DNA of 63,691 nucleotides, the filler included, from Reclinomonas americana ATCC 50394 (Eukaryota), in assembly GCA_048213135.1 (NCBI GenBank). It is 7 parts of 5 records of this genome, joined end to end, with 100 filler letters (N's around TTAATTAATTAA, not from the genome) between each part and the next. Parts side by side here need not be neighbours in the genome. Positions count along the whole stretch, not along the records: positions 23,123 to 33,705 come from PS015531.1; positions 33,806 to 41,731 come from PS015531.1; 5 more parts are not named here. The stretch is one strand, 5' to 3'. A model generated the notes under the pieces. That model worked only from the letters and a program-made list of their open reading frames with translations. It made no database searches and was not told the origin of the DNA. Both the position numbers and the translations under genes were made by a program. This document shows, in pieces, positions 9,704 to 58,554 of this stretch (position 1 is the stretch's first letter; each line of letters starts with the position of its first letter).

Positions 9704-9803
9704 NNNNNNNNNNNNNNNNNNNNNNNNNNNNNNNNNNNNNNNNNNNNTTAATTAATTAANNNNNNNNNNNNNNNNNNNNNNNNNNNNNNNNNNNNNNNNN
9801 NNN
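9704..9803. other. Artificial contig-joining linker (N-TTAATTAATTAA-N)
   Basis: Spacer of about 100 nt with stops in all six frames; equivalent linkers at 23023-23122, 33706-33805, 41732-41830, 52008-52107 and 58624-58723. Confidence 0.97.
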
Positions 9804-13280: not shown

Positions 13281-15664
<2,384 letters not shown>

Positions 15665-15701
15665 AAGAAGTCTTGTCCTCCGTCCCAGTTCGCGACTCAA
15701 C

Positions 15702-16920
15702 ATGATTCTCAGAGCACTCGTCAGTCGCGCTCTCTTCAGCAGCAATCACAAGCTGGCGCTCGTCAACAAGTCCTTCCTCGTGCCCACACTACGCATCAGT
15801 TCGCGGGAAGATGGCCTCAGCGCACTCGACAAGGTCTCTCACAAGCTGTCTTCCACACACACACACACACACTGCATGATGCATGCTCATCACTTCTCAC
15901 TCGCACACGCAGATTCGTGCCACTGCTGCCTTCTATCGAGGCTCCCCCGTCGTCCTGTTGCGTGCACACACACACCCTTCTCCCCTGTCCTCTCTCCCTC
16001 TCTGACACACACGCATGTCAACAGCGACTATCGACCACCTGCCACACCACCGAGCGATGCAGATGCCACGACACCGGCCGGCACTGCAGAGATGAGTAGC
16101 AGTAGCGAGGAGGTGGCCGACTTTGTGCGCCACATTGCCGACACACTGCGTGGGGAGTGCGAGATGCTGCCGGTGGGAGTCACGCAGGCATCGCGCTACA
16201 GCAAGGCGATTGCGCAGGCCGCACGGTTGCCACTCGTGCGCGAAAACAGTCAGTCGGTGGTCGTTGTCAGTGGCAGCGACCAGCCAGCTGCAGCGCTGTC
16301 CTCTCAGCCCGCCACGCCTCAGCCTCCGCCTCCACCACCGGCACAGGTGCAAGCTGCACCGTTGGAGGCGCTGGTGTGGTCGCAGCCGGTGCGTGGCGGG
16401 CAGGAGGTGTATGCCAAGGACCGCAGCCTGGTGGTCATTGGCCACGTGCATGCGTACGGCGAAGTGCGGGCCGACGGCGACATTCACGTGTACGGCGTGC
16501 TGGAGGGCCAGGCGCACGCGGGGTACGTCGAATCGCCGCCGTTGCCGCCCCGTGTCAGTTCCCTCATACCTGTGTGTGCGCGCGTGTGTGTGTCATAGTC
16601 TGCGCGGCAATCTGAACTGCCGCATCTACGCGGCTGCCTTCAATCCGGAGCTGGTGAGCATCGCCGGCTACTACACCAGCATTGAACCGGAAAAGACGAC
16701 TGCATCGACAACAACGACAACGACGACGAATAATGCAGAGAATGCAGCTGACAGCGACGCTGCAGCAGTGGAGCACGAGGGAGACGGCACGCAGATCGCC
16801 AACAGCGATCTGGTCATGCTACGCTCGTCGCTGCGCAACCGGCCCGTCATGGTGTCGCTAAAGCCCGGTCCGCAAGAGACCGATCACCAGCTCGTGTTCC
16901 ACAGAATGGGCGCTCGGTGA
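15702..16920 (+). CDS. minC: Septum site-determining protein MinC, nucleus-encoded, putatively mitochondrial
   Basis: Exons 15702-15833, 15913-15956, 16025-16522, 16599-16920 (331 aa). N-domain AFYRGSPVVLD...MLPVGV; C-domain QPVRGGQEVYAKDRSLVVIGHV..GEVRADGDIHVYGVLEGQAHAG...IYAAAFNPELVSIAGYY; Arg/Ser-rich acid-free N-terminus. Confidence 0.92.
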
Positions 16921-23022: not shown

Positions 23023-23122
23023 NNNNNNNNNNNNNNNNNNNNNNNNNNNNNNNNNNNNNNNNNNNNTTAATTAATTAANNNNNNNNNNNNNNNNNNNNNN
23101 NNNNNNNNNNNNNNNNNNNNNN

Positions 23123-32393: not shown

Positions 32394-35300
32394 TCACAAG
32401 CTTCGACGTGCGTCTGCGTGCGATATCAATCGGTGTCGGAGCGATCGCTGTTCTTCTTTGGCGCCAGAGACGGCAGCTGGTCCAGTGGTACGCACCTGCA
32501 TACGTGCCATGTACACAAAATTAAGCATCGGTGAGCTGCATGCACGCCTGCTGGAGAACGCAACTGCACTTTCATGTCAGACACGGACTCCAGCAACTCG
32601 GCCGAGTTGGAGCCCTTGCGCGTGATCGAGAAGCGACTGCCGGCAAGTATCGCGTGTGGTCAGCACTCATCGCTGTGCTGTTGTGTGAACTTGCAGAGCA
32701 CATATGTACGCACCGTACGCGTTTAGGCGTGGCATCTCCACCGACACCCGTGACTCCTTCTGTGTGCCCAAGCGCCAGCATTGCATATGACGACTGGATG
32801 CGCTCGAGGATGGAGTCCTGTGCAGAGGCACTCGACAGCGTGGGATCGACCTCCAGTCGAGCTCGTTCGCGCGTCACGTATTTCTCGTATTCTCTTCCGT
32901 ACGACTGCACATGCACGCACGCACAAGTGAATCAAACGACGACAGTCCGCCGGTTCAAAAGACACCAGCAGCACTCACCTCGAGAATGAAGGCAATCAGC
33001 ACACTGGAGGGCGCACAGAAGAGTTGAGTGACAATGACGACAGGAATGTGAACGCAGGCGGGAGACGCAACTTGATGAACACCACCACCATGATGAGCCA
33101 CCAGATGATAAAGTAGATTCGTGCAGCGCGGTTCGTCACGGCCACATAGCCGGCCACGATGACCTGCCAGTTGTTGACCTATATATACGCGGATGGATGT
33201 GAGCGACGTCACTACGCTGGCAAGTCTTCCTCACGACGCGTAAACGCACGACTTGGAGCTCGAAGAGAACAACTAATAGCACAAACAAATCAGTGAGTGC
33301 GCAAAAAATAGGAAGAGCAAACGCAGCGGCAAGACGCCTGACGCACCAAGAGCAGACGGCAAGTCATTCATGTTGTTCGAGAAGTATTTGGCTTGCACGA
33401 ATGGGTTGTCGGGCGTCAGGGCCGGATTGCCCTGCGATCACTATCGGTGAGACGGTGCAAGCGAGACGACGGTGGCTGTGGCGACACACTTCGTAAATCA
33501 GTCCACCAAAGACTGCAGAAAAGAAGAGCGTGTTAACTAACAAGCCAGCAGACGAGAAACATGGAGAACGATGTGAGCGTAACTGCCAATGCCGATAATG
33601 GCGTAGGCATAGTATACACCCTGCAGCAACAAATGAGGGCGCGAAACCACCATTTCCACATGCGGAGCGAGGCGACGCAACAAACACGACGGCGCCATAC
33701 GGCCCNNNNNNNNNNNNNNNNNNNNNNNNNNNNNNNNNNNNNNNNNNNNTTAATTAATTAANNNNNNNNNNNNNNNNNNNNNNNNNNNNNNNNNNNNNNN
33801 NNNNNCGGAGAACGCGCAGCATAGATGACGCGAGACACACCGAGAATGTTTTGTAGTACAATGGCCTCCGGCTCCTTGGTGGTGACACCACACTGATAGT
33901 CCAGGTTGGATGTGGCGTAGTGAGCACTGACCATCAGATTGATGGTGTAGGCCACCAGGAACACGTCGACAATGGCGTCGAACCACCTGTGGGAAGCTGG
34001 TTGAACACCACCTGCTTATTCGACCAGCGCTCAACTTGACCGTATGCACGCAACTGCGACTTGATGAAGCGAATGAATGCCTGATTTCCCTTGGTGTGGT
34101 AGATGCATCGGAAGAGCCACTCGAAGAACGTCTGGCTCTCCCACGCCGACTTGACCTTGTAGCTCAACACCTCCAGGAACTCGGCAAACTCCTCGCGAGG
34201 TACACACGACCATCACGTTAAGGAGCCAACAAGTCACGAATGTACGCACACACTGCCTCGCACTGACGTGCACTGCGCACAAAGGATATTCAAAAAGCCA
34301 TTGCCGCTGCGGTTGAGCGCGCTGAATGTGATGTCGATCTTCTCCAGCGGGTAGTGCGAGCGGACAACAATCATCGCGTTACGGAAGGTAACATAGTCGA
34401 TGACCTCCACCGGCGCCACGGACTGTGCGTCTTCCAGGTCGCCGGCCGAGGCAGCACTCTGTGGTGACATGAGTCCCGAACCCGACGCGCCCGTGCCAGC
34501 TCCAACTAGCGCAGCCGCACTGCTACCGGCAGCCGGTGTCATTTCCGGCGATGTGGTGTCATTCTCGGTGCCTGTGCAACGACGACACACGAGATGAGTG
34601 CATGGTACGCGCGTCATCAATCAGAGGCACATACCATCTTGTTGACCCTGTTGATCGTGTTGCCGGGCGCTTGCGCTATTTGCCGGCGACGTGACGGGCA
34701 TTGTGCGAACCGTGCACAGCAGATCAAAGGCCATGGACAGCGCAGCAGTCTTCCAGTAAATGATGCGGGATCCGGCACGTCCAGCATGCTCACGGTAGCG
34801 CGAGTAGACAGACGCAAGCACTGCCAAGGAAGCACACTGTTTTAGGGACAGATCATCAGGAGCGTGACAGTTTGCGGCGGAGGCGTCGCGTACCGAGGGC
34901 CATCAGCATGTACAAGCAGATGATAAGGAAGGCGATAAAGATCAAGACATTCCATCGGCTGCGGGAACAACAAACTGTCGGTACAGAGCGAGTAGATTGC
35001 ACATAGACACATACAACAGCGACGCACTTGTCATCGTATGCTGGCATCATGATAGTACACAGCGCGGCGAGGCGTCAGTCAAGGAAACCACAGCAGAGGA
35101 TATCAACAACAACAACAACAATGGTGACAGCAAGGATATTCTGGAAAATTCGCTGTGGTGAGGGTCACCAGCATGTTGAACCAGGAGTCCCAGAAGCCGG
35201 CAAACATCAGACATCCTTGATTGCTAATCGTGCAAGAATACAGTGATCAGCCGACTGCAAACTCAGACGATGGGAGTTGAGAGCTCACCTGGCCTCGAAG

Positions 35301-36515
35301 AAGATCATGCAAAACAGCACAAAGCTCTGCGCGCGCACACATAAGAAGGGAAGTCGTATTGTGTAGCAGAGTGGTGCAGCCGCAACGCACCAGATGCACG
35401 AGACCGACGCAAAACAGCACGTCGAGAATGTCGGGGATGGTTCGCAGCAAATTCATGAACGTGGCACGCGTGACGTGCGATGATTCGATGAGGTACAGAC
35501 ATCGCAGGAGGCGCAGCCAGAGCCAACCCTCGCCAAGAATGGCCCAAGAGATCAACAATCCAAGAATGTTGAACAGCACCGCCACCGCCATGACCACGAG
35601 CCATGGTCTCCTGTTCTCATGAGAAGCCGGCACACAGACGATCAGAGGAGGCGGATACGTCTTGTTGTGGCGAAAGGCACGCACCCCAAGAACTCCTTGC
35701 GTCCAAGGGTCACGTAGTCGAGCACCACACGACACATGAGAATCGTCAAGAGAATGAGCTTGAGAAGTGCAGCCAACTGCATCGCGCGGTGTGAGTGAAC
35801 CACACACGAGGAGCACGACACACGCTCGATAGCATCACAAACCCAATTCGGCAGCTCGGCAGGCGCAGGAGCCTCAAAGGCACCGAGCACCATAAGAGCG
35901 ACCACATCGGCTGCGAAAACAATCTGTACCCAAACTGCACACCCATCCGAAACCCTCCCCGTGTTCAGAAGCATTCAGCAGCACATACACACACGCAGTT
36001 CTCTCGCAACTCTTGTGATAGAACTTGTACCATCTGCCAGTGGCGTGCCAAGTGAGTTTGAATTGACGCAAGCATACTCACAAAGAAGAAGAGACGCACT
36101 TGAGAGCTGTGGGCGTGGTCAAATGGAACGGTGAGCGACTCGCACGCGCATCACCCAAGTACGTGCCCGCTTGCTCGTACAACTGCATCACATCGCCAGC
36201 ATCAAAACAGAGGCGTCATCATACAGTGTCTGTGTGATGACGCACTGTCCTCTCCTCTGGAGTCCACGAGGCACGAATGCTCTTGGTGGACGTCCAGTGG
36301 TCCTTCTCGCGGCTTCCATCCTGCGCACGCAGTGGTGAGCGGAGAGGGAGACACACGAACTCGCGCATTTATAACGCAAACGCAACTGCATCACTGTCGG
36401 CTTGCGCGCTTCCTCCAGCAGGCGCCGGGGCACCATCGTTACCAATCTCCACTTGCAACTGCTCAAACTCCTCAAACACGCCCTCATTGCGACCTGAGCG
36501 GTGTGGGCTAAACAT
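32394..36515 (-). CDS. Two-pore channel (TPC), split across a contig linker
   Basis: Domain I filter VTLTTANFPDIMMPAY; EF-hand-like NRSGNGFLTREEF; domain II IFGGLIYEGNPAL...NNMNDLPSALVVLFELQVVNNWQVI...NVLIAFILE. The N-half (33806-36515) and C-half (32394-33705) are collinear; IIS2-S4 are missing at the join. Confidence 0.88.
34200..34289 (-). other. U12-type (minor) AT-AC intron, 90 nt
   Basis: Minus strand: donor ATATCCTTT, branch TCCTTAAC (34224-34217), acceptor AC. Removal yields GFLTREEFAEF. Confidence 0.93.
35055..35139 (-). other. U12-type (minor) AT-AC intron, 85 nt
   Basis: Minus strand: donor ATATCCTTG, branch TTCCTTGAC (35086-35078), acceptor AC. Removal restores TTANFPDIMMPAY. 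Confidence 0.93.
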
Positions 36516-37476: not shown

Positions 37477-37649
37477 TGACGCAGCGGTGCACGTACGCAC
37501 GCACCCCTCTCTTCTCTGTGTCTGTGCAGTGAAGAGAGAGAATACCAGCATAGATTCAATCGCTTATCATTTTCCTTTTCCTCAATCTTCCTTGGCGCCC
37601 TCATGCATCGGCGTCGACAGCCATTTCATCTGCACACCGAGGGAGCGTG

Positions 37650-40600
37650 TTAGGAGATGGAGTGTGGGGTGACACGGGATCGTGTCAGCAAACCTTCGCT
37701 TCCGCCACCAAAAAGATCGTCGTCGGCTGCTGCTGCTGCTGAGGCGGCTACTGTTGTGCTTGCTGCCGGCTTGGATGCGTCGTCGTCGTCGCCAGAGCCA
37801 AACAAATCGTCGTCTTCGTCCTCGGCATCGAGCACCTTGCGCCGCTTCACCGCCGGTGTGGATTCCTCCTCGCCCACATCCGACAGCCTGTCCTCGGTCT
37901 CGACCTCGTCGGCCTCGTCGCGTGGTCGCTTGCCGCGAATCTTGCGCTTACCAACCTTGTTCTTGCGCTTCTTCGGGCTGTCCGAGTCGCTGTCGCCTGA
38001 GTCCTCGGCCTCCTCACTCATCTCCTCGTCTCCTTCCTCCTCCTCGTCCTCCTCATCGCTGTTGCGTTGACGGTGAGAATGCAGGGAAATCGCTCGCCAT
38101 CCCACCCTCCCATCTACTCACCTGGCTGCTCGGCTCTTCTTCTTCTTCTTTTTCTTGTCGGCCGACTTGGCGGCCGCCTTCTTCTTCTTGCCCTTAGCCT
38201 TCTTGGAGCCGTGTCGCCAGTCAATCTGACCGTCGTCTTCCTCCTCTTCCTCTTCTTCCTCCTCCTCTTCGTCCACCTTGCGCTTGCGTGGCGCCTTCTT
38301 GCCACCACCACCGCCACCGGCCGAGCCTCGCGCTCGCGGAGCTCCACCTGCACTGCTCTTCTTCTTCTTCTTCTTGCCGCCGCCAGAGCCGTCGCTGTCG
38401 TCTGAGTTGGCAAGCAACATTAGACACGCGCGTCATTATCTCGCCCACACACACACACAATCGTCTCACTGACCCCCTCCACTCACCATCCTTGATGATG
38501 GTCGACTTCCACGTGCTCTGCACCTGGCGGAAGCGCTCTCGATCGGCTTCAGCTCGTCGTCGCATCTCCTCTTCGGCGGCAATCTGCCGCTGCTTTTCCT
38601 CTTCCTGCAGCGAATGATGAGTGCAAATCACAAAAATAGGTGAATAAAGACGCACAAACCTCACGGGCTCGCATCTGCTGCAGACGCGCTTCCAGCTCCT
38701 CGCGCTTGGAGTCTCGCTGCGCCTTGGCCTCCTCCTCCTGTCGACGCACCGAGTCCACCATTTTCTCCAACTTGCCGCGCCACTCGGCACATTCGTGCGA
38801 CTTGTTCTTCGCCAGCTGATGCAACGACGTGTGACGTTCGGTCCAGTACGCACCCACCACTGCGGCGTCACGACTCGGATTGTCCTTCAACTCCTCCGCC
38901 TTGCGTTCCACAAAGCGGAAGATGCTGCGCCCCACGGCCATTCACACCTATCAGAGATGCTGGCGACGCGGGAGCAAAGGGGAAAACCAAACGCAACTGG
39001 TGTGCCGAGGTCATAATGTCGCGGATCTTGATGACGGTTGCGGCGCTGGTGATGATCGAGCGCACCTTGTCCACACACATTTGCTCCTGGATCAGTGCAA
39101 TGTCGAACCACGTCTGCAGGTCCTCCGGTCGCAGGTGGGCGACCTTTTGCAGCGTCGACAGCGCCGTTTCCAGGTGACCGGCACAGTAGTGGGCGCGGGC
39201 CAAGTACTTCAAGATTTCCACGTCCGAGTTGTGCGATACCTTCAAGCATGTCTCGTACTGCAACAACAGATAAGTGGCAACCTGATGCGAGGAAAGGAGG
39301 GGGAATAGAGCAGTAGCGTACCAACTTGATGGCGTCGGCGTACCGCTTGTACGACACGTCAATGTGCGCCAGATTCAGCAGCACCTCGGGGATGATCTTG
39401 CCGCCCTCGCGCACCTGTGCGCGTGTCTCGTGTCAAAACAACAACACGCAAACAGCGCTATGGAGTACACTCTCCAGCAAACCTTCTGGAAGATCTCACG
39501 TGCGTCGTCCAGGAAGCCACCGTCGGCCAACAGCACACCGAGCGCATTGGCGGCGTACACATTGTCGGGATCCACAAGGAGCGCCCGATCAAAGAACTTG
39601 ACGGCGTGCGCACGGTATTTCTCGTGCTGCGGCACCGCATCCACCAAGTGATGAGCAACACACTCGCATCACGCAGCAACCGATGATTGTTGTCAGCTAC
39701 AGACCTTCTTCTTGAGCACATCGATGCACGAGTTCTCGTAAAAGATCTTGCCAAGCGACAGCAGGGCCATCATGTCGCGCTGGTTCATGCCGTTGAGAAT
39801 GTCCTCAAAGTGACCCTGCGCCAGGCTCCACTCTTCGCGCATCATGTGCAACTGGCCCTGCAGGGAGCGCACATCGGGGTTGTCCTTGGCAATGGCTGTG
39901 GATCATTGCAAGTCGTGAGTGGAACGACAGCGTGCTGCGGAGGAGGAAATACGACGCACATGCTGCTACAGAGAACCACCGACCAGCCATCCGGTGATTG
40001 CCCGTGTCGCGTGCCATGATGCCGAGCCGCAGGTATGCTGTGCCAGAGAAAAAAGAGTGAAAAGACCTGGCTACGGATAAAGCACATCGCGCATCTCACC
40101 GTCCAGGTAGCACGGGTGGCTCTTCAGCAGCTCCAGATACATCTCGCGCGCCTCGTCGGCGCGGTGCTTGTCCTCCATCAGTCGTGCCATATTGTAGCGA
40201 ATGGTGATCTGTGGTGCGCGAGAGCCAAACTGAGTCTCATGCTCCGTCAAATAACGCAGAGAGCTCCTCCACACACACAACTTCCATTTCCTTGAGGCGA
40301 TCCTGCGTGGCCGCTAGAGCATTGATGTCGGGAAGCGAAGCGAGAGCGGCGTCACTGGCCTCGTTGACGGTGTCGATGAGCTGCTTCACTTCATCAGCAG
40401 CACGCAGGGTCAACTGGAGAGCCGTCCGATGCGAGCGCTCTGCATGGTCCAACAGCGACATGCTCGAGTTGATGTGCTCATCGTCTACATCGCCCACATC
40501 GTGGTGCACAAACTGGAAGTGCTGCGCATCCGAATCGGAGCGCAGTGCTGGAATGGAATGACAGCAGGTGAGCCCTTCCACGACACAAACAAACATATCA

Positions 40601-41731
40601 AGAGAAGCGCAATCAGACCTAATGAGCGCTGCAGGCAGCCAATGTTGTTCCACACTTCGGGGGTCAAACCCAATTTCCGGTCTCGTGCAATACGCACGGC
40701 GCGTTCGTACGCTGAAGAGGTGTCACAGTCACAACCACAATCGGTCGCAGAATCATGCATCATCGACACAAACCAGCCAGTGCGGTCTTTGGCTTCACGC
40801 GCTCCAACAGTTGCCCCTGCATGACCCACCCGTCGAGGTCGTCGGTGACCACCGAGGTGAGCTTCTGCACCACCTGTAACGCCTCCGCCTCACGTCCGAG
40901 CTTCATGTACAGCGAGCCGAGAATCTGCAACAAGTAATAAGTTTCCCCCATGTTCACACACACACACACACTCGTTGTCGCCGTCTCCGGTACGGACCTT
41001 CAGCGTCTCGTAGTTGTTGGGATAGGCATCGAGCACCTTCTCAAACTGCTCCAACGCCTTGTTTTCGTCACCACGGTACAGGTAGATCTGACCGAGGCCA
41101 AAGAGCGCCAGTGAAAACGTGCTGGACTTGTCGACCGCCTGGCGATAGTGTACAAAGGCAGTGTCGAAATCGCTGTGCAAGTGCGCCACCTTGGCGAGAA
41201 TGAAGTGGCTCATGGCCTGCACCTCCACCACTCGGGTATTGTGCAGGGCGACTTCGGCGAGTTGCCGCGCCTGCACACAAACACGCATACTTAGCTCGCA
41301 GTCGCAACAACAATAAGAACCACACTGCACGCAAAACCTCTGCGACACGCCCGAGGAAGAACAAGTGGTCGGCCACGTAGTTGAGCACCACAGAATGATC
41401 GCCATTCAGCTGGTACGCCTCGCGAATCAAGTTCAGGGCGCGATCGAGCCGATCTGGCTTGTCGTCCTGCAGCTCGCACACCGCCAGGCCCACGCGCGCC
41501 TCCACACTCTGCTCGTCGAGGGCGAGCACTCGGTCAAAGCAGTCGCGTGCTCGATCCACACGCTTCTGGTGAAAGTAGCAGTAGCCGAGACCGAGACGAA
41601 CATTCGCGGGCACCGTCGGGTTCAGCCGCAACGCCTCCTTGTACATCTCAAACGCCTTGTCGTACTCGCCCTCGGTAAAGTGCACGAGAGCCTGGAGGAG
41701 GGAGATGAGGGGATGCGCAATGTGAGGAGGC
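37650..41731 (-). CDS. CTR9: PAF1 complex TPR subunit CTR9 (5' partial)
   Basis: TPR arrays; VRLGLGYCY, NNYETLKILGSLY, TIRYNMARLMED, YAANALGVLLA...AREIFQKVRE, VLLNLAHI; acidic/basic low-complexity tail. Confidence 0.9.
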
Positions 41732-41830
41732 NNNNNNNNNNNNNNNNNNNNNNNNNNNNNNNNNNNNNNNNNNNNTTAATTAATTAANNNNNNNNNNNNN
41801 NNNNNNNNNNNNNNNNNNNNNNNNNNNNNN

Positions 41831-43700
41831 NAACTCATCAGCGTGGATGTCCACCTTTTGACCGTCGAGTGTCACAGTGACTGCGCGTGCATCGCGCGCG
41901 GACGAGGAGGCTAATGAAGAGGAGGCAGCAGCCGCAGCAGTGGAGGAGGAGGAAGAGGAAGACAAGGAGGAGGTGCCGATGCGAGAGCCCGAGGAGTGCC
42001 GCATGCTCGAGGCCGACCCCAGGCGATCATAGGAGAAGAGGTCGGCGTCCACCTCCATCTCGAAAATCTCAATACGATTGACTTCACGTGACAACGACGG
42101 AAGACAACTCGTCGCTGGGGAACTTCACACTGTGCTTGTGTGCAGCACTGCATATGTTCATAATACAATCTCAATCGTGCGATTGGTGAAGAGGACGGCG
42201 CTAAAGATCTTCTTGGCGGCTGGTCCGATCGCGGGGTTGCCTGCAAGTGCGCGCGAAGGTAGGTGGAAGGAAGAGATGGCTTGCTTGCGTGCTACGTGCG
42301 CCGTGTACGAACCACTGATGTCGAGGTGGCGCAGTGAATCGGTAGCTTGCATGAGGAAGCTGGCGCAGCCAAGGGCGCCGGGTCGGCCAATCCCGTTGGC
42401 TGTGTGGCGATCGGGTGAGCTTTTCTCTCTCGCGGTGTCTAGATCTTCGAGAACACACGCCCTGCTTACCTGCGACACTGAGAGAGCGCAAGCCGCATGC
42501 TGGCGACGCGGCCACCTCGACCATCGACTGCACACCATCGTCGCCAATGGCGTTGTGACTGAGATTGAGTCGGTGGAGAGTGGAGTTGTGGGCCAGCGCG
42601 TGGGAGAGCGTGACGGCCGATCTGGTGGACATGCGAGTTACTGTGGACAGCAGGGGAGTGAGGGAACGGAGTCGGCGAGGAACAGCACGAGGCAAACAAA
42701 AGTACATGTCAAATCGAGCGTCTCGAGCGTGCGGTTGTGGCGCAGCGCTTCTGCCAGCAGCGTGACGCCGTCGTCGGCGAGTGGATTTCGACCACAGTCG
42801 AGGTAGCGCAGCGGTGTCGACGCGAGAAGCACGGTGGACAGCGCCCGTGCACCCGTGCTGGTAATGGAGTTGACTGGCGGGGGGTGGCGGAGGAGTGAGC
42901 GATCACATCACAATCAGAGAGACGCGGCAGAGGGTACAGCCACACACACGAAACAATTGAGGCTGAGCGACGTGAGCGTGCTGTTCACCGACAGCGCCGC
43001 GCCCAACACCTCCATGCCCGCGTCGGCGATCTCATTGCCGGCCAAACTCAGCATGCGAATGCCACCGCCACCGTCACCTCCAACAACATCGTCACTCATC
43101 ATCTCCACATCCTCCTGTTCACGCACCAACCACAGCGCCACGATCGCCGAGCCACCGTCTCCCAGTCCATTCTGACTGAGATTGAGGGACTCGAGCGAGC
43201 GACTGGCCCGCACTCCCTCCAGCAGCAACGTGTTCAAGTGCTCTCCATTCTGCCGCATCAGCGCACTCTTGCCAATGTCCAACGAGCGCAGTCGACAGTT
43301 CCCATCGCGCAGCGCATCCCCCAACAATCGCGACGTGTCGCGCGGTGGCACCCCCGCACCCGCCATACTCAGCCCGCGCACTGCACTCTTGCCCGACCGC
43401 ACCGCTGCCGCCAAGAAACGCAGTCCATCCGCACCCATGGCATTGCGCGACACGTCGACACTGGTCACCTCCGACAGCTCCGCCTTCAACGCCGTGGCCA
43501 GCCGGTGCACGCCAGTGGCAGTGAGCGCATTGTCGGCGAGATTCAGTGTACGCAGAGCACACGGCATCTGCATCAGTGTCGCCAGCTCGGCATCACAGAG
43601 TCGCGACGAGTGCGCGTCGACACGTCGCACTCCTGGAAAGAGCTGACACAGACGGCCCAACTCGCCACGATGTCGCGCTGTGCTCACCTGTACATTGCTC
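41831..43700 (-). CDS. Ribonuclease-inhibitor-like LRR protein (NLRC3/CARMIL-type repeats)
   Basis: 28-aa repeats such as LESLNLSQNGLGDGG, LSLAGNEIADAG, LAEALRHNRTLETLDL, LHRLNLSHNAIGDDG; ends uncertain. Confidence 0.8.
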
Positions 43701-44220
43701 AGTGCCGCCTCTGCGTGAAAGTGCCAGTCAGCTGTGTGGTGACAGAGAAGGAGGGAGAGAGGGAGGGAGGGCGCACCAAAGGCCGAGCACCACTCGCGAC
43801 TGACTCGCCATTGTGCGACAAAGTCGGAGCACTCGAGAAACGCTGGCGATCAGAGGAGACCGTGGGTACGAGAGCAACACTTACTTTGTGACAAAAAGGA
43901 CGCACGCACAGAAGATGAGCGACCACGCGCTTGTCTCAAATGCCGACATACGAAACGCAACGACGTCGTCCGTCCTGCAATCTTGACATGTTGGTGTTCA
44001 TGCATCGCGGTGGCGAACAGTAGGAAACGTACGCGCGTGTCTGCACCGATCGGCAGCTGCGAGAACGCAGTCTTTTGGCGATAACAACGAACGTCGATGT
44101 CCTGTTGAAGTCTCCTCAATCGATCGATCGCCTCTCGCGCGCGCCCCCCGCTCTCCCACCGATCTCCTCTGCAGACGTTCCCCTCTCCTCCTCCTCCCTC
44201 TTCTCCTCCGTCGATATAAC

Positions 44221-45039
44221 ATGAGGCATCGTGGCTTTATATCACTATCGCTCGAACTGCTGCTGCTGTCGTTGTTGGTGGCGTTGACCGCGCCCGCAGT
44301 GATGGCCTCGCGCGCTGTTGATCAAGGTAAACGCTGCTGTACTTTACGTGTGTGTGTTATGTGTGTGTTTGTGCGAGATGGCAGGCGGTTGCTCAACCGT
44401 GTCTCACGCAGATTCCTCGAGCATCTCTCGCTCCCCGGCGATGCGCCTGCTGGCCTCCTCTGCTGCCTCTTGTTGCGTTTACTTAATCCCCCCTTCTCCA
44501 TGCTGCACACGCGTGGCGGTACTGATGCACTCACACGCGTGCAAACCACACAGCCATGACAATGCCTTCCAATGCCACTGTGGCGACGGCACCACACACG
44601 CACATTACCGCAAAGGTGCGTGTTGAGAGAGTCGATTGAGTGTGTATGTGTGGGGGTCATCGCAGCGGAAGATTTAATTCGCTCAATGACATGGCTGCCA
44701 TCTGCTGCACAGGCGACGACGGAGCCCGAGGGCACGCTTGTGACGCCCATGCCGGCCATCATCGCCTTTGGATCGGCGCTGGCGAGTGAGGAATCGACGG
44801 GATTGGGCCTGTTGGCGAAACGCGACGGATCGCATGTGCCGTCGCTGAGTGCGGCCGATCAGTTCTCGTGGGCGTCGTCGAGCGCGTCGGGCGCGCTCGC
44901 CACCGATTCCTTGTGCGGGTTTGGTGGGCGCCAGTCGTATCTTTGTTGTGCCACGCGCTTGGCAGTCGGTATCTCTGGTTTCCATCCGGCTGCCGGCGCC
45001 GGCTGGCGAGGTTGGGGCCGAAGCGTCGGCGGTGCTTGA
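44221..45039 (+). CDS. Hypothetical secreted protein
   Basis: Signal-peptide-like MRHRGFISLSLELLLLSLLVALTAPAVMA followed by short plausible exons; no family recognised. Confidence 0.4.
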
Positions 45040-46925
45040 ACGAAGTACCCCTCTAGGTTGGTGGTGTCTCCCCCCAGCTGCTGCGACAATCGTACTGCAG
45101 AGNNNNNNNNNNNNNNNNNNNNNNNNNNNNNNNNNNNNNNNNNNNNNNNNNNNNNNNNNNNNNNNNNNNNNNNNNNNNNNNNNNNNNNNNNNNNNNNNNN
45201 NNNNNNNNNNNNNNNNNNNNNNNNNNNNNNNNNNNNNNNNNNNNNNNNNNNNNNNNNNNNNNNNNNNNNNNNNNNNNNNNNNNNNNNNNNNNNNNNNNNN
45301 NNNNNNNNNNNNNNNNNNNNNNNNNNNNNNNNNNNNNNNNNNNNNNNNNNNNNNNNNNNNNNNNNNNNNNNNNNNNNNNNNNNNNNNNNNNNNNNNNNNN
45401 NNNNNNNNNNNNNNNNNNNNNNNNNNNNNNNNNNNNNNNNNNNNNNNNNNNNNNNNNNNNNNNNNNNNNNNNNNNNNNNNNNNNNNNNNNNNNNNNNNNN
45501 NNNNNNNNNNNNNNNNNNNNNNNNNNNNNNCTCACTCTTGACAATGCAGAGCGTTTGTTTAGTATGGACGGGCCACCGCGTGCGTTGCTTGTCGGTATTG
45601 TGCGACAGTGCCCGGCTCGTGCGCGTCCACCAGTCAAAACACTGATGTTGGCCCACTTCTTTGTGATCTTGGTGGTGTGCGTGCACGATTTTGAGGGCGA
45701 CGACACGGACGCGGTTGACGACCACGAAGATGTGGCGTCGGAGGTCGCCGTGTTGGCGCACTGATAATAATGCGTGATGCCTCTCTCTCTCTCTTTGTCT
45801 CTCTCCCTCTTCTCTCCTGTTGCTGTCGTGGTGGTGGTACGAATGTGAAATAGTTGGATCTCTTGCGGCACCCTTGCGATCGCATCGCTCCTTTTTACTC
45901 CCTTGGTGATTGCAGGCCCCGCTGCAGATACCGCGCTCGCGATATCCAGCTCGCGTCGTGGTGTCCAGGTTTGAAGTACTGGTGCTTGCAGAAACTGGTG
46001 TGCAAGGCTGGTGGTCGACAGGTGCGAGTGGGTCACACACGAGCCACATTTCCGACGAGAGAGTGAGAGAGGAGAGAGAGAGAGGGGTCGTTTTCCCTGT
46101 TTCTGTTTCTTGTACATCGAGCAGTGCATGTACGCAGTGCGCGTTATGGACCGCGTGAGGACCCCACGGGAACGTGGTCGGTCAGCAACCCCGTATTTTC
46201 TCGAGTGTGTGGTGTTGGCGCGAAACAATCTCCACATTTCCGTGCACACGAAATTCGAATATCGGAAATCGCATGTCGGCACGCAGCGTGCACTCTGCGC
46301 GTGAGGAGCATCGCCACACTCTTTGTCGCGGCACGGACTGCTGGTGGGGAGCGTGTGCTCAGGTGTGTGNNNNNNNNNNNNNNNNNNNNNNNNNNNNNNN
46401 NNNNNNNNNNNNNNNNNNNNNNNNNNNNNNNNNNNNNNNNNNNNNNNNNNNNNNNNNNNNNNNNNNNNNNNNNNNNNNNNNNNNNNNNNNNNNNNNNNNN
46501 NNNNNNNNNNNNNNNNNNNNNNNNNNNNNNNNNNNNNNNNNNNNNNNNNNNNNNNNNNNNNNNNNNNNNNNNNNNNNNNNNNNNNNNNNNNNNNNNNNNN
46601 NNNNNNNNNNNNNNNNNNNNNNNNNNNNNNNNNNNNNNNNNNNNNNNNNNNNNNNNNNNNNNNNNNNNNNNNNNNNNNNNNNNNNNNNNNNNNNNNNNNN
46701 NNNNNNNNNNNNNNNNNNNNNNNNNNNNNNNNNNNNNNNNNNNNNNNNNNNNNNNNNNNNNNNNNNNNNNNNNNNNNNNNNNNNNNNNNNNNNNNNNNNN
46801 NNNNNNNNNNNNNNNNNNNNNNNNNNNNNNNNNNNNNNNNNNNNNNNNNNNNNNNNNNNNNNNNNNNNNNNNNNNNNNNNNNNNNNNNNNNNNNNNNNNN
46901 NNNNNNNNNNNNNNNNNNNNNNNNN

Positions 46926-49900
46926 CGTGTGTCTCGACAGGATCATATGTCCTCTTTCGTGCGCTAATTTTTTGTGTTCAGTGGCTGCTCGACCGTGCCG
47001 CCGGCACAGACGCAGCCGCAGCCGCAGAACCCATGCGATGCCTGCCACATGGTGCGTCATGTTGGGCGCCATTTAGTGTGAGGCGTTTGTTTGCTCATTC
47101 TGACCGAGGTGTGTGTGCTTGTTGCAGAACTGCAACCAGAGCCCAAGCCCCACCGCATGCCACGACGCCTGCCAGGCCACTGGTGGCCCGTGCTTGAACA
47201 CCACGTACCAGCAGCCACCGCCACAGAACCCGTGCGATGCATGCCACAACTCGTGTGTTGGCGTGAACAACACTTCCGCGTGCCACAACGCCTGCCAGGT
47301 TGCCGGTGGCCCGTGCTGGAACAGCGCGAACCCGCAGCCTCAGCCACAGCCGCAGAACCCGTGCGATGCGTGCCACATGGTGCGTCTTACAGTCAACCAT
47401 GCAAATTGTTTGCAGACTCTGACTGTCGTGTGTGCTTCACAGAACTGCAACCAGAGCCCGAATCCGGCTTCATGCAACGACTCATGCCAGGCCGCTGGTG
47501 GCCCGTGCTGGAATGGCGCGTACCAACAGCCGCAGCCGCAGCCGCAGAACCCTTGCGATGCGTGCCACATTGTGCGTCGTGCAGCCGTTGGTGTGAACGT
47601 TTTTACAGGCTCTGACTGTCGTGTGTGCTTCACAGAACTGCAACCAGAGCACGAACCCGGCTTCATGCAACGCCGCATGCCAGGCGACGGGTGGCCCGTG
47701 CTGGAACGGAAACGCTCAGCCGCCGAACACCAGCGGTGGCAACAACAACCGTGACTTCTGCATGGAGCAGCTTCACCAGTGCGGCATCATGGCCCGCAAC
47801 TGGTGCGTAGTCATTCGTTTATTTTGTTGCTTCATTGACTTACTTGATTTTTTTGCCTTGTTTTGCAGCTCGATCCAGAACTGCAACGGCCAGTGGTCGT
47901 GCGCTGTGTGCACCCCGCAGATTGATGCTTGCATTAACAACATTGGCTCGTTCCCTCAGGTTAGTGTTCAAGTACACACAAGGATTGTACGTTTTGATTC
48001 TCACGACGTACGTTTGTGCAGTGCCAGGGCCCGTGCTTCAACCTGTATGCCGGTTGCGGCCACCAGGCTGTCGACTGCGTTCTTGCTGTGTGCCCGTTGT
48101 CGCTGTTTGAGGCCGACGTGTGCCAGCAGTGCAAGGATCAGTTGAGCCCGTGCTTCGCCCAGGCCGACGCCTGCACCCAAGCCAACCAGCCGAACCAGCC
48201 GTACTATCCCCCGGCTACTGGCACTGCGCCGCCGCCGAACCAGCCGTACTACCCTCCGGCTACTGGCACTGCGCCGCCGCCGAANNNNNNNNNNNNNNNN
48301 NNNNNNNNNNNNNNNNNNNNNNNNNNNNNNNNNNNNNNNNNNNNNNNNNNNNNNNNNNNNNNNNNNNNNNNNNNNNNNNNNNNNNNNNNNNNNNNNNNNN
48401 NNNNNNNNNNNNNNNNNNNNNNNNNNNNNNNNNNNNNNNNNNNNNNNNNNNNNNNNNNNNNNNNNNNNNNNNNNNNNNNNNNNNNNNNNNNNNNNNNNNN
48501 NNNNNNNNNNNNNNNNNNNNNNNNNNNNNNNNNNNNNNNNNNNNNNNNNNNNNNNNNNNNNNNNNNNNNNNNNNNNNNNNNNNNNNNNNNNNNNNNNNNN
48601 NNNNNNNNNNNNNNNNNNNNNNNNNNNNNNNNNNNNNNNNNNNNNNNNNNNNNNNNNNNNNNNNNNNNNNNNNNNNNNNNNNNNNNNNNNNNNNNNNNNN
48701 NNNNNNNNNNNNNNNNNNNNNNNNNNNNNNNNNNNNNNNNNNNNNNNNNNNNNNNNNNNNNNNNNNNNNNNNNNNNNNNNNNNNNNNNNNNNNNNNNNNN
48801 NNNNNNNNNNNNNNNNNNNNNNNNNNNNNNNNNNNNNNNNNNNNNNNNNNNNNNNNNNNNNNNNNNNNNNNNNNNNNNNNNNNNNNNNNNNNNNNNNNNN
48901 NNNNNNNNNNNNNNNNNNNNNNNNNNNNNNNNNNNNNNNNNNNNNNNNNNNNNNNNNNNNNNNNNNNNNNNNNCTACTGGCACTGCGCCGCCGCCGAACC
49001 AGCCGTACTACCCTCCGGCTACTGGCACTGCGCCGCCGCCGAACCAGCCGTACTACCCTCCGGCTACTGGCACTGCGCCGCCGCCGAACCAGCCGTACTA
49101 TCCTCCGGCTACTGGCACCGCGCCGCCGCCGAACCAGCCGTACAACAACAACAACAACAACAGCAACCGCGACTTCTGCATGGAGCAACTCCACCAGTGC
49201 GGCAACATGGGTCGCGACTGGTGCGTGGACTGTCGTCGTAGTCACTTGGTTCTTTTGTTGCTTCGTTGACTGACTTGTTTTTTGCTTGGTATTGCAGCTC
49301 GATCCAGAACTGCAACGGTCAGTGGCCGTGCGCCGTGTGCACCCCGCAGATTGATGCCTGCATCAACAACATCAGCTCGTTCCCTCAGGTTTGTTCACAA
49401 GCAAACCAACAAAGTGTGAGAATTTTAATTGTTTTTTGGTCTCTCGATTCTGACGACGTACGTTTGTGCAGTGCCAGGGCCCGTGCTTCAACCAGTATGC
49501 CGGTTGCGGCCACCAGGCTGTCGACTGCGTTCTTGCTGTGTGCCCGTTGTCGCTGTCTGAGGCCGACGTGTGCCAGCAGTGCAAGGATCAGTTGAGCCCG
49601 TGCTTCGCCCAGGCCGACGCTTGCACCCAAGCCAACCAGCCGAACCAGCCGTACACTGCGCCGCCGCCGAACCAGCCGTACTACCCTCCGACTGCTGGCA
49701 CTGCGCCGCCACCGAACCAGCCGTACTACCCTCCGGNNNNNNNNNNNNNNNNNNNNNNNNNNNNNNNNNNNNNNNNNNNNNNNNNNNNNNNNNNNNNNNN
49801 NNNNNNNNNNNNNNNNNNNNNNNNNNNNNNNNNNNNNNNNNNNNNNNNNNNNNNNNNNNNNNNNNNNNNNNNNNNNNNNNNNNNNNNNNNNNNNNNNNNN

Positions 49901-52007
49901 NNNNNNNNNNNNNNNNNNNNNNNNNNNNNNNNNNNNNNNNNNNNNNNNNNNNNNNNNNNNNNNNNNNNNNNNNNNNNNNNNNNNNNNNNNNNNNNNNNNN
50001 NNNNNNNNNNNNNNNNNNNNNNNNNNNNNNNNNNNNNNNNNNNNNNNNNNNNNNNNNNNNNNNNNNNNNNNNNNNNNNNNNNNNNNNNNNNNNNNNNNNN
50101 NNNNNNNNNNNNNNNNNNNNNNNNNNNNNNNNNNNNNNNNNNNNNNNNNNNNNNNNNNNNNNNNNNNNNNNNNNNNNNNNNNNNNNNNNNNNNNNNNNNN
50201 NNNNNNNNNNNNNNNNNNNNNNNNNNNNNNNNNNNNNNNNNNNNNNNNNNNNNNNNNNNNNNNNNNNNNNNNNNNNNNNNNNNNNNNNNNNNNNNNNNNN
50301 NNNNNNNNNNNNNNNNNNNNNNNNNNNNNNNNNNNNNNNNNNNNNNNNNNNNNNNNNNNNNNNNNNNNNNNNNNNNNNNNNNNNNNNNNNNNNNNNNNNN
50401 NNNNNNNNNNNNNNNNNNNNNNNNNNNNNNNNNNNNNNNNNNNNNNNNNNNNNNNNNNNNNNNNNNNNNNNNNNNNNNNNNNNNNNNNNNNNNNNNNNNN
50501 NNNNNNNNNNNNCTGCTGGCACTGCGCCGCCACCGAACCAGCCGTACTACCCTCCGGCTACTGGCACTGCGCCGCCGCCGAACCAGCCGTACTACCCTCC
50601 GGCTGCTGGCACTGCGCCGCCACCGAACCAGCCGTACTACCCTCCGGCTACTGGCACCGCGCCGCCGCCGAACCAGCCGTACAACAACAACAACAACGGC
50701 GACTTCTGCATGGAGCAACTTCGCCAGTGCGGCAACGTGGGCCGTGACTGGTGCGTGGACTGTTATCGTAGTCACTTGGTTCTTTTGTTGCTTCGTTGAC
50801 TGACTTGATTTTGCTTTGTATTGCAGCTCGATCCAGAACTGCAACGGTCAGTGGCCGTGCGCTGTGTGCACCCCGCAGATTGATGCCTGCATCAACAACA
50901 TTGGCTCGTTCCCTCAGGTTAGTGTTCAAGTACACACAAGGATTGTACGTTTTGATTCTCACGACATAAGCTTGCGCAGTGCCAGGGCCCGTGCTTCAAC
51001 CAGTACGCCGGTTGCGGCCACCAGGCTGTCGACTGCGTTCTTGCTGTGTGCCCGTCGTCGCTGTTTGAGGCCGACGTGTGCCAGCAGTGCAAGGATCAGT
51101 TGAGCCCGTGCTTCGCTCAGGCCGACGCTTGCAGCCATGCCAACCAACCGAACCAGCCGTACACCGCGCCGCCGCCGAACCAGCCGTACTACCCTCCGGC
51201 CACTGGCACCGCGCCGCCGCCGAACCAGCCGTACTACCCTCCGGCTGCTGGCACTGCGCCGCCGCCGAACCAGCCGTACTACCCTCCGGCTACTGGCACC
51301 GCGCCGCCGCCGAACCAGCCGTACACTGGTGCTGCCAACTATTACCCACCGTCGACTGCTGTGGCATCGCCTTGCGATTTCTGCCGCCAGGTTTGTAATT
51401 TTGTTACCCGACGTCCTTTGTCATTCTGCCACTCATGCGAGCTTATTTTGTTGTGTAGAATTGCACTGGTGCTGCCGATCCGAGTGCTTGCAACAACAAC
51501 TGCGACATTGGACCGTGCAACCCGGGCACTGCCGTGTACTACCCACCGGCTGGCACTGCTGCATACTACCCGCCGGCTGGCACTGCTGCGTACTATCCAC
51601 CGGCTGGCACTGCTGCTGGCTCCTACGTGCCGCCGCCACCGCCGCCGGCTGAGGGCACTGCCGCATACTACCCGCCGGCTGGCACTGCTGCGTACTATCC
51701 ACCGGCTGGCACTGCTGCTGGTACTTACGTGCCGCCGCCACCGCCGCCGGCTGAGGGCACTGCCGCTGGCTCTGCCAACTACTACCCGCCGGCTGGCACT
51801 GCTGCCGGCACGGCACCGCCACCACCACCGCCGACTGCTGCCACTGGCACTGCTGCATACTACCCGCCGGCTGGCACTGCTGCTGGCTCCTACGTGCCGC
51901 CGCCACCGCCGCCGGCTGATGGCACTGCCGCTGGCTCTGCCAACTATTACCCGCCGACTGCGGCCACTGGCACTGCCGCATACTACCCGCCGGCTGGCAC
52001 TGCTGCT
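46926..52007 (+). CDS. Large modular Cys-rich / Pro-Tyr-rich repetitive protein, probably extracellular (partial)
   Basis: About 4 NPCDACHxNCNQSPNPASCNDSCQAAGGPCWN modules; 3 DFCMEQLHQCG...CFAQADAC modules (about 47750, 49170, 50700); NQPYYPPATGTAPPP tandem repeats; YYPPAGTAA repeats. Confidence 0.75.
48193..51325 (+). repeat. 45-bp coding tandem repeat (NQPYYPPATGTAPPP), several arrays, partly collapsed into N gaps
   Basis: Unit aaccagccgtactaccctccggctactggcactgcgccgccgccg seen at about 48193-48284, 48974-49143, 49670-49736, 50513-50680 and 51178-51325. Confidence 0.95.
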
Positions 52008-52107
52008 NNNNNNNNNNNNNNNNNNNNNNNNNNNNNNNNNNNNNNNNNNNNTTAATTAATTAANNNNNNNNNNNNNNNNNNNNNNNNNNNNNNNNNNNNN
52101 NNNNNNN

Positions 52108-53553
52108 AAGAGCCCATGGTCACCAGACCGCCAACGCCCATGCCGCCGCCACCGCCCACGCCACCGCCGCCCATCATGTGCACCCCACCGCCGCCGCCGC
52201 CGCCGCCGATACCCGTCATGTGCGAGTGCTCAAACATGCGGATGCCGCCGGAGCCGACACGTGCGCCAAACACCGGCACACCGCTTGACATGGCCGTGGC
52301 CATGCTGTCGACGCCCATCATGACGGCGTCGCCGCCGCCGCCACCGCCGCCGCCAGCAACGACTGCCGCCGGCACTCCGCTGCCGCCACCACTCAACATT
52401 GAGGCCACCGAAAACATGCTGCGGTCGGCCATTTGCAGTGAATGTACTGGGGGTGGCAGTGGTGGCGCGGGCGGCTCGAGTGAATATGGCGGCCGGTGGT
52501 GGTCGACAAACGACACACGACGGTTCATCTGTCGCGGCATCGGCGGCAGCGTATCCGACGTGTGCGAGCTGTGCCGCGAGTGCGACAGATTGCTGCGGCG
52601 GGACGACGACGAGTGCTCAGGCGAGTAGTCGCCACCAAAACCCTCAAAGGAACCCACACTGGTGTGCGACACGGGCGACACGGCGTCCACCGAGCGATTC
52701 GGCGCCAGCAAGTGACCACCGTTGCGAAGGCCGGCCAGCGTCACTGCAAGAAACACGGTAAGCAACGCACAGTGGTGAGGAGGAGGCGAGGAGAAGACGC
52801 AACCGTGATCGGTGTGATGACGCGAGTGCTGGCGCGGGCGTGTGCGGCCCGCAGTCTCCCCCGACGACGACGACGACACCGATCCGCGCGACGCCTGCTG
52901 ACTGGTGCCGCTGTACGCGACCACCGTCTCATCCAGCGTATACTTGCGCGAGTGTCCACCTGCACGATGCTGCTGCTGCTGNNNNNNNNNNNNNNNNNNN
53001 NNNNNNNNNNNNNNNNNNNNNNNNNNNNNNNNNNNNNNNNNNNNNNNNNNNNNNNNNNNNNNNNNNNNNNNNNNNNNNNNNNNNNNNNNNNNNNNNNNNN
53101 NNNNNNNNNNNNNNNNNNNNNNNNNNNNNNNNNNNNNNNNNNNNNNNNNNCCCAAGGGGAACGCATTAAAGTGGTGCGCCTTCTCTCCGTCATCCTGCAT
53201 GGTGACGTCGGCCACGTGCGCATTGGCGCTGCGGGCAAACTTGCCGCGCGCAAACAGGAACGCCTCCGGCACGCTGGTGCGGCGACCGAGGCCCAGACCA
53301 AGCATGCCACCGCGACCATCGCCACCGATGCCTCCGCCGCCACCACCAACGCCACCACCGCCGGGGCCACCGAGACCCATCATCATACCGCCGTACGGCG
53401 ACGAGAGTGGTGGCGTACCTGGTGGCGTGGCGGCGCCGGGCATGTGCATCAGCACACTGCCCTGATGCATGTCGCTGCCGCTGACCACACTGCTGGCCGT
53501 GCTGCCGGCGTACATGGGCGTGGTGCGGCCGGAGGACATGTCGAGCGAGGGCG
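52108..53553 (-). CDS. Low-complexity Gly/Met/Ser/His-rich hypothetical protein fragment
   Basis: Long coding-like frame interrupted by gaps and one likely intron near 52745-52805; no domain recognised. Confidence 0.45.
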
Positions 53554-55131
53554 NNNNNNNNNNNNNNNNNNNNNNNNNNNNNNNNNNNNNNNNNNNNNNN
53601 NNNNNNNNNNNNNNNNNNNNNNNNNNNNNNNNNNNNNNNNNNNNNNNNNNNNNNNNNNNNNNNNNNNNNNNNNNNNNNNNNNNNNNNNNNNNNNNNNNNN
53701 NNNNNNNNNNNNNNNNNNNNNNNNNNNNNNNNNNNNNNNNNNNNNNNNNNNNNNNNNNNNNNNNNNNNNNNNNNNNNNNNNNNNNNNNNNNNNNNNNNNN
53801 NNNNNNNNNNNNNNNNNNNNNNNNNNNNNNNNNNNNNNNNNNNNNNNNNNNNNNNNNNNNNNNNNNNNNNNNNNNNNNNNNNNNNNNNNNNNNNNNNNNN
53901 NNNNNNNNNNNNNNNNNNNNNNNNNNNNNNNNNNNNNNNNNNNNNNNNNNNNNNNNNNNNNNNNNNNNNNNNNNNNNNNNNNNNNNNNNNNNNNNNNNNN
54001 NNNNNNNNNNNNNNNNNNNNNNNNNNNNNNNNNNNNNNNNNNNNNNNNNNNNNNNNNNNNNNNNNNNNNNNNNNNNNNNNNNNNNNNNNNNNNNNNNNNN
54101 NNNNNNNNNNNNNNNNNNNNNNNNNNNNNNNNNNNNNNNNNNNNNNNNNNNNNNNNNNNNNNNNNNNNNNNNNNNNNNNNNNNNNNNNNNNNNNNNNNNN
54201 NNNNNNNNNNNNNNNNNNNNNNNNNNNNNNNNNNNNNNNNNNNNNNNNCCAGTACCCGCCAGCGGACCACGATCTCGAGTCGGCCTCGGCCATGGAAGAC
54301 GACGATGGTGGTGGCGGCGGCGGTGGCGGTGGCGACGACGACGGTAGGGGCGGCGGCGATGACGACGACGATGCGGTGGCTGAGTCGATGCCAACGCAAC
54401 ACGCAAGGTCACCACCAGCATCTCGTGTAGGGTTTGGCGCACGACCGCCAGTGGCCCCTCCTCGGCCCTCGTACTTGTCGATTGTTCTCGACTGATGCTC
54501 TCAGCAAAAAATAATGGTGTGGTTAAGCAGCGGTGTGTGCGTGGTCTATTTTCTTTCTGTAGGTATGCGCCAATTCTCTCCCTGTAATGTCTATCGCTGT
54601 GTGTCTGTGTGTGTGTGTGTGTCATCCCGCCCCCGCTTGTGTGTGTGTTGTTATTTCATGAATGTTGTTTGTCAATTTTGAACCCGAGCCCGAAGTGCGC
54701 CACGGGAGGGAAGAGGTGTGCTGCCTCTCTCCCTCGGGTGCCTCGCTAAGAAAAGAGAAGCAAGACCTGTAATGTATGCGAGAAGAAGAAATTCGTGGGG
54801 GAGGGGCGAGGGGTGGAAGGAGAGGGAAGGGAAGGACAGGGAAGAAAGTTGTTTGTGGTTGGCACTCTTCTCATCGGTCGACAAGGGCACGATGCGCGCT
54901 CCGTCCTGTTCCATCGCTCTCCCTTCCGCTGTGTGTCCTCTTTATCTTCTCCACTCCTTCCGTTCCCCTCTCTTCCACCTTGTCTACCGACTCGACGCCC
55001 GCTGAACTCAACGTGAGGGTGATACGCATGCGCAAACCACAACACGATTCACTGGAGACACAAAGAGGAAAGGTGGAGACAAAAAAGAGGGGATCCAATC
55101 GCGGTGACACGCTCCGTCCGCTCTGCCGACT

Positions 55132-57770: not shown

Positions 57771-58221
57771 TCGTTTCGTTGCAAAAGAAATGTCCGATCG
57801 ATCGGAGCTCGACGTTCACGTGTGCTTACAGCAGAAGCATGCGAGGCAGAGGAGTGCGTCGTTCTCACCGCTCACAAGTCGTTCCTCTCATTGTCGACTT
57901 TTGCGATTAATTATAGAAATTGCAACACAAAACGTCGCGTTGCAGCTGTGCTCGTCATGCAAACACGCGCGCAGGCTTGTCATTGCTCCTCATGCGTACG
58001 CACACGCCTTTGGATCCCAAACCGTTCCTCTCATCGTCGACGTTCACAAAAAACACAAAATTGCAGCAAGAAACGACCACATTGCCGTGCTTTTCATGTA
58101 CATATGCAGACTTGCTGCTACTCTTTCATACGCACGCGCTCTTGTGCTTCGCTGGGGTTGTTTAGATGGTGCGTTGATCGACGTCGACCCGCGGGATTTG
58201 CGCCGGACACTTTCAATCACA

Positions 58222-58522
58222 ATGGCAAGTGGGAGCGGAAGCAGCGCTGATTACCTGAGTGGGCCCAAGCTGCGCGCGTGGACCAAGGAGGATCTGAAGA
58301 CGTTCAGCAAGGAGCACCCTGAGGTGTGTTTTCTTTGCATAAAACGTGGCGGCCATTTCGCACCTCTCACTCGTTTGTTTGTTTGTTGTGCAGAGTGCGC
58401 GGCAGTTGAACACGTTGAAGACGACGGGTGCGTTTTGTGCGGCGACGGGCACGCTCAGCTCGTTTGCAGTGGCGCGCTCGTTTTGGCGAGTGACTCACAA
58501 GTTGCGTGTGATGCAATGAGAG

Positions 58523-58554
<32 letters not shown>

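Follow-up and report, generated by a model that had tools for sequence, protein, structure and literature searches.

Minor (U12-type) introns are over-represented in the genes of voltage-gated Na+ and Ca2+ channels, and every Nav and Cav alpha gene contains one or more of them (PMC6865273). In PMC6259924 the conserved AT-AC site of these genes is located in segment S1 of domain I, the two introns of the domain-I pore loop are conventional, and the U12 consensus consists of the donor ATATCCTTT, the branch site TTCCTTRACYCY and a YAS acceptor; for human SCN5A the supplement of PMC6717393 gives ATATCCTTT and TTCCTTGAC. Among protists, minor introns are known from Blastocystis, Acanthamoeba, Phytophthora and Saprolegnia, and 77% of those in Blastocystis belong to the AT-AC subtype. 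Here we describe two segments that are very probably genuine U12-dependent AT-AC introns, judged from their sequence, in a presumably functional two-pore channel (TPC) gene of the protist Reclinomonas americana ATCC 50394 (assembly GCA_048213135.1). The gene is located on the minus strand of a stretch of 63,691 nucleotides, hereafter the window, and the positions of its features are collected in table 1.

The two putative introns share with the AT-AC introns of animal Nav and Cav genes both the class and the consensus (ATATCCTTT, TTCCTTRAC, YAC), and their host genes belong to the same voltage-gated cation channel superfamily. The sites differ, however: whereas the Nav/Cav site is in S1, the intron at the start of domain I S1 is of the GT-AG type here (36010-35935, GTTGCG donor), and the AT-AC introns are found in the Asp codon of the domain I selectivity filter (filter I) and in the inter-domain linker. 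The spacing between branch site and acceptor is also longer than in the U12 introns of Nav/Cav. What the two cases have in common is the intron class and the gene superfamily, and their positions are not shared. With the minor introns of other protists the two segments have in common that they are short and belong to a unicellular eukaryote; they differ from those of Blastocystis in that their phases are not 0 and in that they are longer (85 and 90 nt) than the major introns of the same gene (48-76 nt). TPCN is absent from the human and mouse minor-intron gene tables that were examined, which include SCN5A and CACNA1A, and other supplements could list a TPC. The searched literature contains no co-mention of At4g03560 with U12 or of TPC1 with 'U12-type intron', and no TPC term occurs in the supplement of PMC10639083 or in that of PMC11347168, the latter being a weak negative from what is not a full gene list. 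A two-pore channel would be added to the ion-channel genes known with AT-AC introns, which is a sound but unsurprising extension of a known phenomenon and leaves the understanding of the minor-intron mechanism unchanged.

The donor ATATCCTT stands in the exon/intron context aga/ATATCCTTG in intron 1 and tga/ATATCCTTT in intron 2, and the corresponding intron/exon boundaries read ...CTGTGTAC/tat and ...GTGTGTAC/ctc. Compared with the consensus of PMC6259924, the donor agrees in 8 of 9 positions in intron 1 and in all nine (9/9) in intron 2. The branch-site core TCCTTRAC is matched in 8/8 positions in each intron, and both acceptors are TAC, consistent with YAS and in each case the first AC at least 8 nt past the branch A. 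U12 donor and branch motifs are carried by none of the 17 GT-AG introns modelled in the same gene. The phases of the two introns, 2 and 1, and the length and intron density of the channel gene are what is usually seen where minor introns occur (PMC10639083). If intron 1 is retained, the reading frame stops at 35105-35103, and with intron 2 retained it stops at 34236-34234; scripted splicing of the two segments gives ...TTANFP-D-IMMPAY... and ...NRSGNGFL-T-REEFAEFLE..., respectively. An earlier note on this DNA, made from the sequence alone, had placed both segments at these positions with ATATCCTT donors, TTCCTTGAC and CTCCTTAAC branch sites and AC acceptors, and had stated that the unspliced frames run into stops; direct reading and a scripted scan bear out both statements. 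Its further remark that animal Nav and Cav genes carry AT-AC introns is correct according to PMC6865273 and PMC6259924.

Could these motifs be chance occurrences? By our own estimate a given 8-mer is expected about once at this window size and composition. Against this, a scan of the 63.7-kb window on both strands found ATATCCTT only twice, as the donors of introns 1 and 2, and of the three occurrences of TCCTTRAC two are in these introns and the third is at 7642 on the plus strand; GTATCCTT was not found in the window. The composite pattern ATATCCTT-N40-70-TCCTTRAC-N8-25-AC was matched twice, whereas none of 100 shuffles that preserved the dinucleotides contained a match (mean 0.00, maximum 0), and both matches are located exactly where the frame needs an intron. 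The shuffles and the frame test together effectively refute chance, to which we attach a negligible probability. The assignment of the segments to the U12-type AT-AC class in a two-pore channel gene, as proposed in the earlier note, finds strong support in the signals and the shuffle statistics and in the restored protein motifs. An origin of both introns as copies of a single mobile element was also considered and rejected: aligned with each other, their interiors scored -10, and the mean for shuffled sequences was -9.3 (sd 3.4). The introns share nothing beyond their signals, and therefore the signals seem to have been kept independently.

At junction 1 the choice of splice sites was examined by enumerating every GT/GC-AG or AT-AC pair that leaves the frame open and free of stops. 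This yields 13 frame-preserving combinations, seven of them GT/GC-AG, and all seven use the sole available AG (acceptor at 35041) and lose DIMMPA. The remaining AT-AC pairs either are without U12 signals or add 12 unrelated residues, as does, for example, the ATATCCTC donor at 35103. Among the 13 combinations only 35139..35055 produces NFPDIMMPAY. Considering that the conventional options all delete DIMMPA and that the other AT-AC pairs lack signals or insert residues, junction 1 can be regarded as fixed. The spliced product NFPDIMMPAYDDNRWNVLIFIAFLIICLYMLM aligns by eye and without gaps to residues 273-304 of human TPC2, from filter I to domain I S6 (IS6), with 15/32 identical positions, and NFPDIMMPAY corresponds to NNPDVMIPAY of TPC2. 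This alignment spans the AT-AC junction, the 27-nt micro-exon that follows it and the next GT-AG junction. It may be added that recognition of this micro-exon (35028-35054) would require both spliceosomes to act over a very short exon.

To identify the channel, single exon or open reading frame (ORF) pieces served as queries in the Pfam, PDB and homologue searches. The ORF encoding filter II and domain II S6 (IIS6) gave four PDB matches of distinct sequence, with E values from 2e-4 to 0.024, and all are TPCs (TPC2 in two constructs, TPC3 and TPC1); the similarity covers residues 652-691 of TPC2, and VNNWQV is identical in residues 652-657 of the human protein. For the exon encoding domain I S3-S5, 23 of 30 matches in the protein atlas fall in Ion_trans clusters (best score 0.92), and its 14 weak PDB matches (E 0.013-0.097) are all to BK-channel S3-S4 regions. 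By reading, S1-S6 of domain I and S1-S2 and S4-S6 of domain II are present, the tool support being confined to the domain I S3-S5 exon and pore II. TPCs have two tandem six-helix Ion_trans repeats in one polypeptide of about 750-850 residues; the gene model comprises about 850 codons, a size compatible with a two-domain and not with a four-domain channel. TPC-type selectivity filters are recognizable in both domains, filter II according to the PDB matches and spliced filter I according to the alignment by eye, although the protein is very divergent from the known TPCs. Our reading is that the gene encodes a divergent two-pore channel.

Intron 2 is located in the linker between the two domains. 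Plant TPC1 has a pair of EF-hands in its linker, and the linker of the present protein contains one EF-hand-like loop, NRSGNGFLTREE, which is interrupted by the intron. The AT-AC pair alone yields a loop of 12 residues whose positions 3, 5, 6, 8 and 12 are S, N, G, L and E, in agreement with the EF-loop rule at these five positions; the N at position 1 is unusual. The earlier note had claimed that splicing restores both a pore motif and an EF-hand loop. The pore motif TTANFPDIMMP, with its match to TPC2, and the sequence GFLTREEF stand, whereas the identity of the latter as an EF-hand finds no support in Pfam or PDB searches with its two halves.

Several observations speak against the interpretation of the two segments as U12-dependent introns of a two-pore channel gene. 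First, the frame by itself does not settle junction 2, where 38 combinations keep it open, 32 of them GT/GC-AG. It could thus be proposed that only intron 1 is U12-type and that the second segment is wholly or partly removed by the major spliceosome, for example as 34263..34192 or 34251..34192, the more so because some of the available donors (GTGCGA, GTGTGC) resemble donors used in this gene. However, each of these 32 alternatives has to end in GAG or AAG, acceptors that are absent from the 17 GT-AG introns of the model (CAG in 14/17, TAG in 3/17), a contrast that is partly circular, as 11 of the 17 introns come from chain searches admitting only YAG acceptors and the remaining six, the central ones, were picked by eye. 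The conventional options also bypass the perfect set of ATATCCTTT, TCCTTAAC and TAC, and they would put unrelated residues in place of the loop NRSGNGFL-T-REE. Removal of the second segment by the major spliceosome is on these grounds considered improbable, and splicing at the AT-AC pair is preferred.

Second, the distance from the branch A to the 3' end is 24 nt in intron 1 and 18 nt in intron 2, both above the optimum of 11-13 nt given for U12 introns in PMC3584512, although the range of this lineage may differ. U2-dependent AT-AC introns have been reported (PMC1557818), and together with the long spacing this leaves room for the view that the major spliceosome processes both segments, which would then be uninformative about the minor spliceosome. 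The full U12 donor and branch consensus in both introns, with these motifs in none (0/17) of the GT-AG introns, makes such a view very improbable. U2-type AT-AC introns are not known to carry the U12 donor and branch motifs. A distinct polypyrimidine tract is not expected in U12-type introns. The pyrimidine fraction at positions -20..-4 is 0.65 and 0.41 in the two AT-AC introns and 0.41-0.82 in the GT-AG introns of the gene; the former values are inside the range of the latter, and therefore pyrimidine content does not discriminate here.

Third, the EF-hand reading depends on a general loop rule and on a loop with N instead of D at position 1, and the exons flanking intron 2, queried singly, gave no relevant Pfam or PDB match (for the EF-hand half-exons, two irrelevant PDB matches for one and 0 for the other). 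Fourth, Pfam returned 0 families at E <= 1 for seven single exon pieces, and a degenerate DNA pattern combining the filter-I motif with the U12 donor was found at one locus only in metagenomes, a chance match; this locus was rejected as AT-rich sequence and not a channel gene. Other searches were similarly poor in results: the pore-I exon had 0 PDB matches, neither the S3-S5 exon nor the pore-II ORF had a match in word-based homologue searches of large protein collections, an exhaustive HMMER search gave only three weak matches, to unrelated membrane proteins, and a metagenome protein scan produced 602 pattern matches with 0 confirmed relatives. For most searches, single exons lack the necessary length and have diverged too far.

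The gene model itself is of uneven certainty, the 5' exons and the last exon being less certain than the rest. The central nine exons (35603-33806) form an open frame of 407 codons only when both AT-AC segments and six GT-AG introns are removed. Upstream of them about five GT-AG introns were added by a chain search from the candidate ATG at 36515, which is the least certain part, and downstream of the artificial linker that interrupts the gene, six further GT-AG introns were placed by chain search up to the last exon and the stop ending at 32572. Altogether 19 introns are visible. Seventeen are of the GT-AG type and measure 48-76 nt, on average 67.5 nt; the two AT-AC introns are the longest. 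Over the linker the reading resumes sensibly, from domain II S1-S2 to domain II S4-S5, and therefore the contig order seems right, though part of domain II is missing. The core of this spacer (33706-33805), TTAATTAATTAA, contains stop codons in all frames. Among the GT-AG donors of the gene, GTTGCG is found in 4/17 (36386, 36010, 34054 and 33071) and GTTACG in 1/17 (33583), all on the minus strand; T would thus occupy position +3 in five of 17, which is unusual, and these placements follow from ORF continuity, with the TPC IIS6 match as a further ground in the case of 33071.

A gene in a fragmented draft, with a linker within it, might also be a decaying pseudogene, or the segments might be retained, in which case the signals would be relics. 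However, all exons of the model are open and the channel motifs are intact, and both splice-signal sets are perfect, which would be unexpected without selection. We accordingly judge decay or retention very unlikely, about as unlikely as processing of both segments by the major spliceosome, and return to the preferred explanation that the gene is functional and both introns are spliced by the minor machinery.

What would this mean for the organism? We infer that RNA is spliced at these sites in the cell and that a working minor spliceosome would hence have been kept, because two perfect, frame-critical U12 introns interrupt an otherwise intact gene; it is reasonable to suppose, as the earlier note did, that U11, U12, U4atac and U6atac are retained. 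A search of the window for small nuclear RNAs was negative, both at the gathering threshold and at E <= 1. As U12 splicing is generally understood, the ATATCCTT donor would pair with U11 and later with U6atac, and the TCCTTRAC branch site with U12; downstream of the branch site, the first suitable YAC would be used as acceptor, and the major spliceosome would remove the other 17 introns. The two introns may serve as a clean marker, at the level of sequence, of minor splicing kept in this organism, which has no near relative in the protein collections, and as a marker of its lineage. They are also useful for genome annotation, as the protein searches turned up no annotation or predicted protein of this genome: predictors that admit only GT-AG introns would plausibly mis-model the gene, as the earlier note anticipated, truncating or frame-shifting the selectivity filter and the Ca2+-sensor-like linker, and the gene should be flagged for this reason. 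A wider reading is that these are minor introns of a eukaryotic lineage with no earlier record of minor splicing, that the TPC keeps ancient minor introns which animals lost or converted, and that one of the conventional domain-I pore-loop introns conserved in Nav/Cav could go back to the filter-I intron as a minor-type ancestor. We hold this to be doubtful; if true of the filter-I intron, minor introns would have been tied to the channel superfamily before the duplication from two to four domains.

Table 1. Features of the channel gene, in positions of the window
Feature	Position	Strand	Remarks
TPC-like gene, about 21 exons	32572..36515	minus	Candidate start codon (ATG), 36515; first in-frame stop ends at 32572; contains linker
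Exon encoding domain I S3-S5	35391..35610	minus	PDB search, Ion_trans atlas neighbours
Putative U12-type AT-AC intron 1	35055..35139	minus	85 nt, phase 2; interrupts Asp codon of filter-I motif NFP-D-IMMPAY
Intron 1 donor ATATCCTT	35132..35139	minus	Direct reading and scripted scan
Intron 1 branch-site motif TTCCTTGAC	35078..35086	minus	A at 35079, 24 nt before last intron base
Micro-exon, 27 nt, encoding (D)IMMPAYDD(N)	35028..35054	minus	Between putative U12-type intron 1 and a GT-AG intron
Putative U12-type AT-AC intron 2	34200..34289	minus	90 nt, phase 1; interrupts position 9 of EF-hand-like 12-residue loop NRSGNGFL-T-REE
Intron 2 donor ATATCCTT, then T	34282..34289	minus	Direct reading and scripted scan
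Intron 2 branch-site motif CTCCTTAAC	34217..34225	minus	A residues at 34219/34218, 19/18 nt from 3' end
Artificial linker inside gene	33706..33805		44 N + TTAATTAATTAA + 44 N; domain II about S2-S4 partly missing
Exon encoding filter II and IIS6 (VNNWQV...)	33072..33178	minus	PDB matches to TPCs

Contigs have been joined into a chain to make up the window. The artificial spacers in it, six in number and identical (44 N + 12 bases + 44 N), are at 9704-9803, 23023-23122, 33706-33805, 41732-41831, 52008-52107 and 58624-58723, and there are also plain N gaps of 20 to 776 bases. The channel gene is flanked by a thioredoxin/Ctr9-like region upstream and by leucine-rich repeat (LRR) genes downstream. 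The Ctr9-like TPR gene (37600-41405, minus strand) has many introns and a long Lys/Glu-rich tail, and no U12-type donor was seen in its introns; a protein-atlas search with its ORF did not point to any lineage.

On the plus strand, at 14138-16595, pieces of glycosyl hydrolase family 1 (GH1) occur in several frames, and in one ORF a MinC C-terminal domain (E 1.3e-14) comes after them. MinC is a bacterial-type division protein, here in a eukaryotic context, and the ORF could be an organelle-division gene; a contig from a bacterial contaminant was considered as the source of the GH1/MinC-like ORF and rejected, as no prokaryotic relative was found. The region 44000-58000 has a G+C content of 0.32-0.53, compared with 0.55-0.64 elsewhere, and many gaps, and presumably consists of repeats; its long ORFs had no Pfam match. 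Long hairpins at 58520-58622 and 7673-7767 match many unrelated microRNA-precursor models on both strands, well below gathering scores, and the former, which adjoins a contig linker, may be an assembly palindrome. An ORF at 60620-61408 (plus strand) carries an OmdA/YdeI domain (E 5e-13), a mostly bacterial family, and the best protein matches of a conserved lipoyl-E2 ORF in the window have 31-38% identity.

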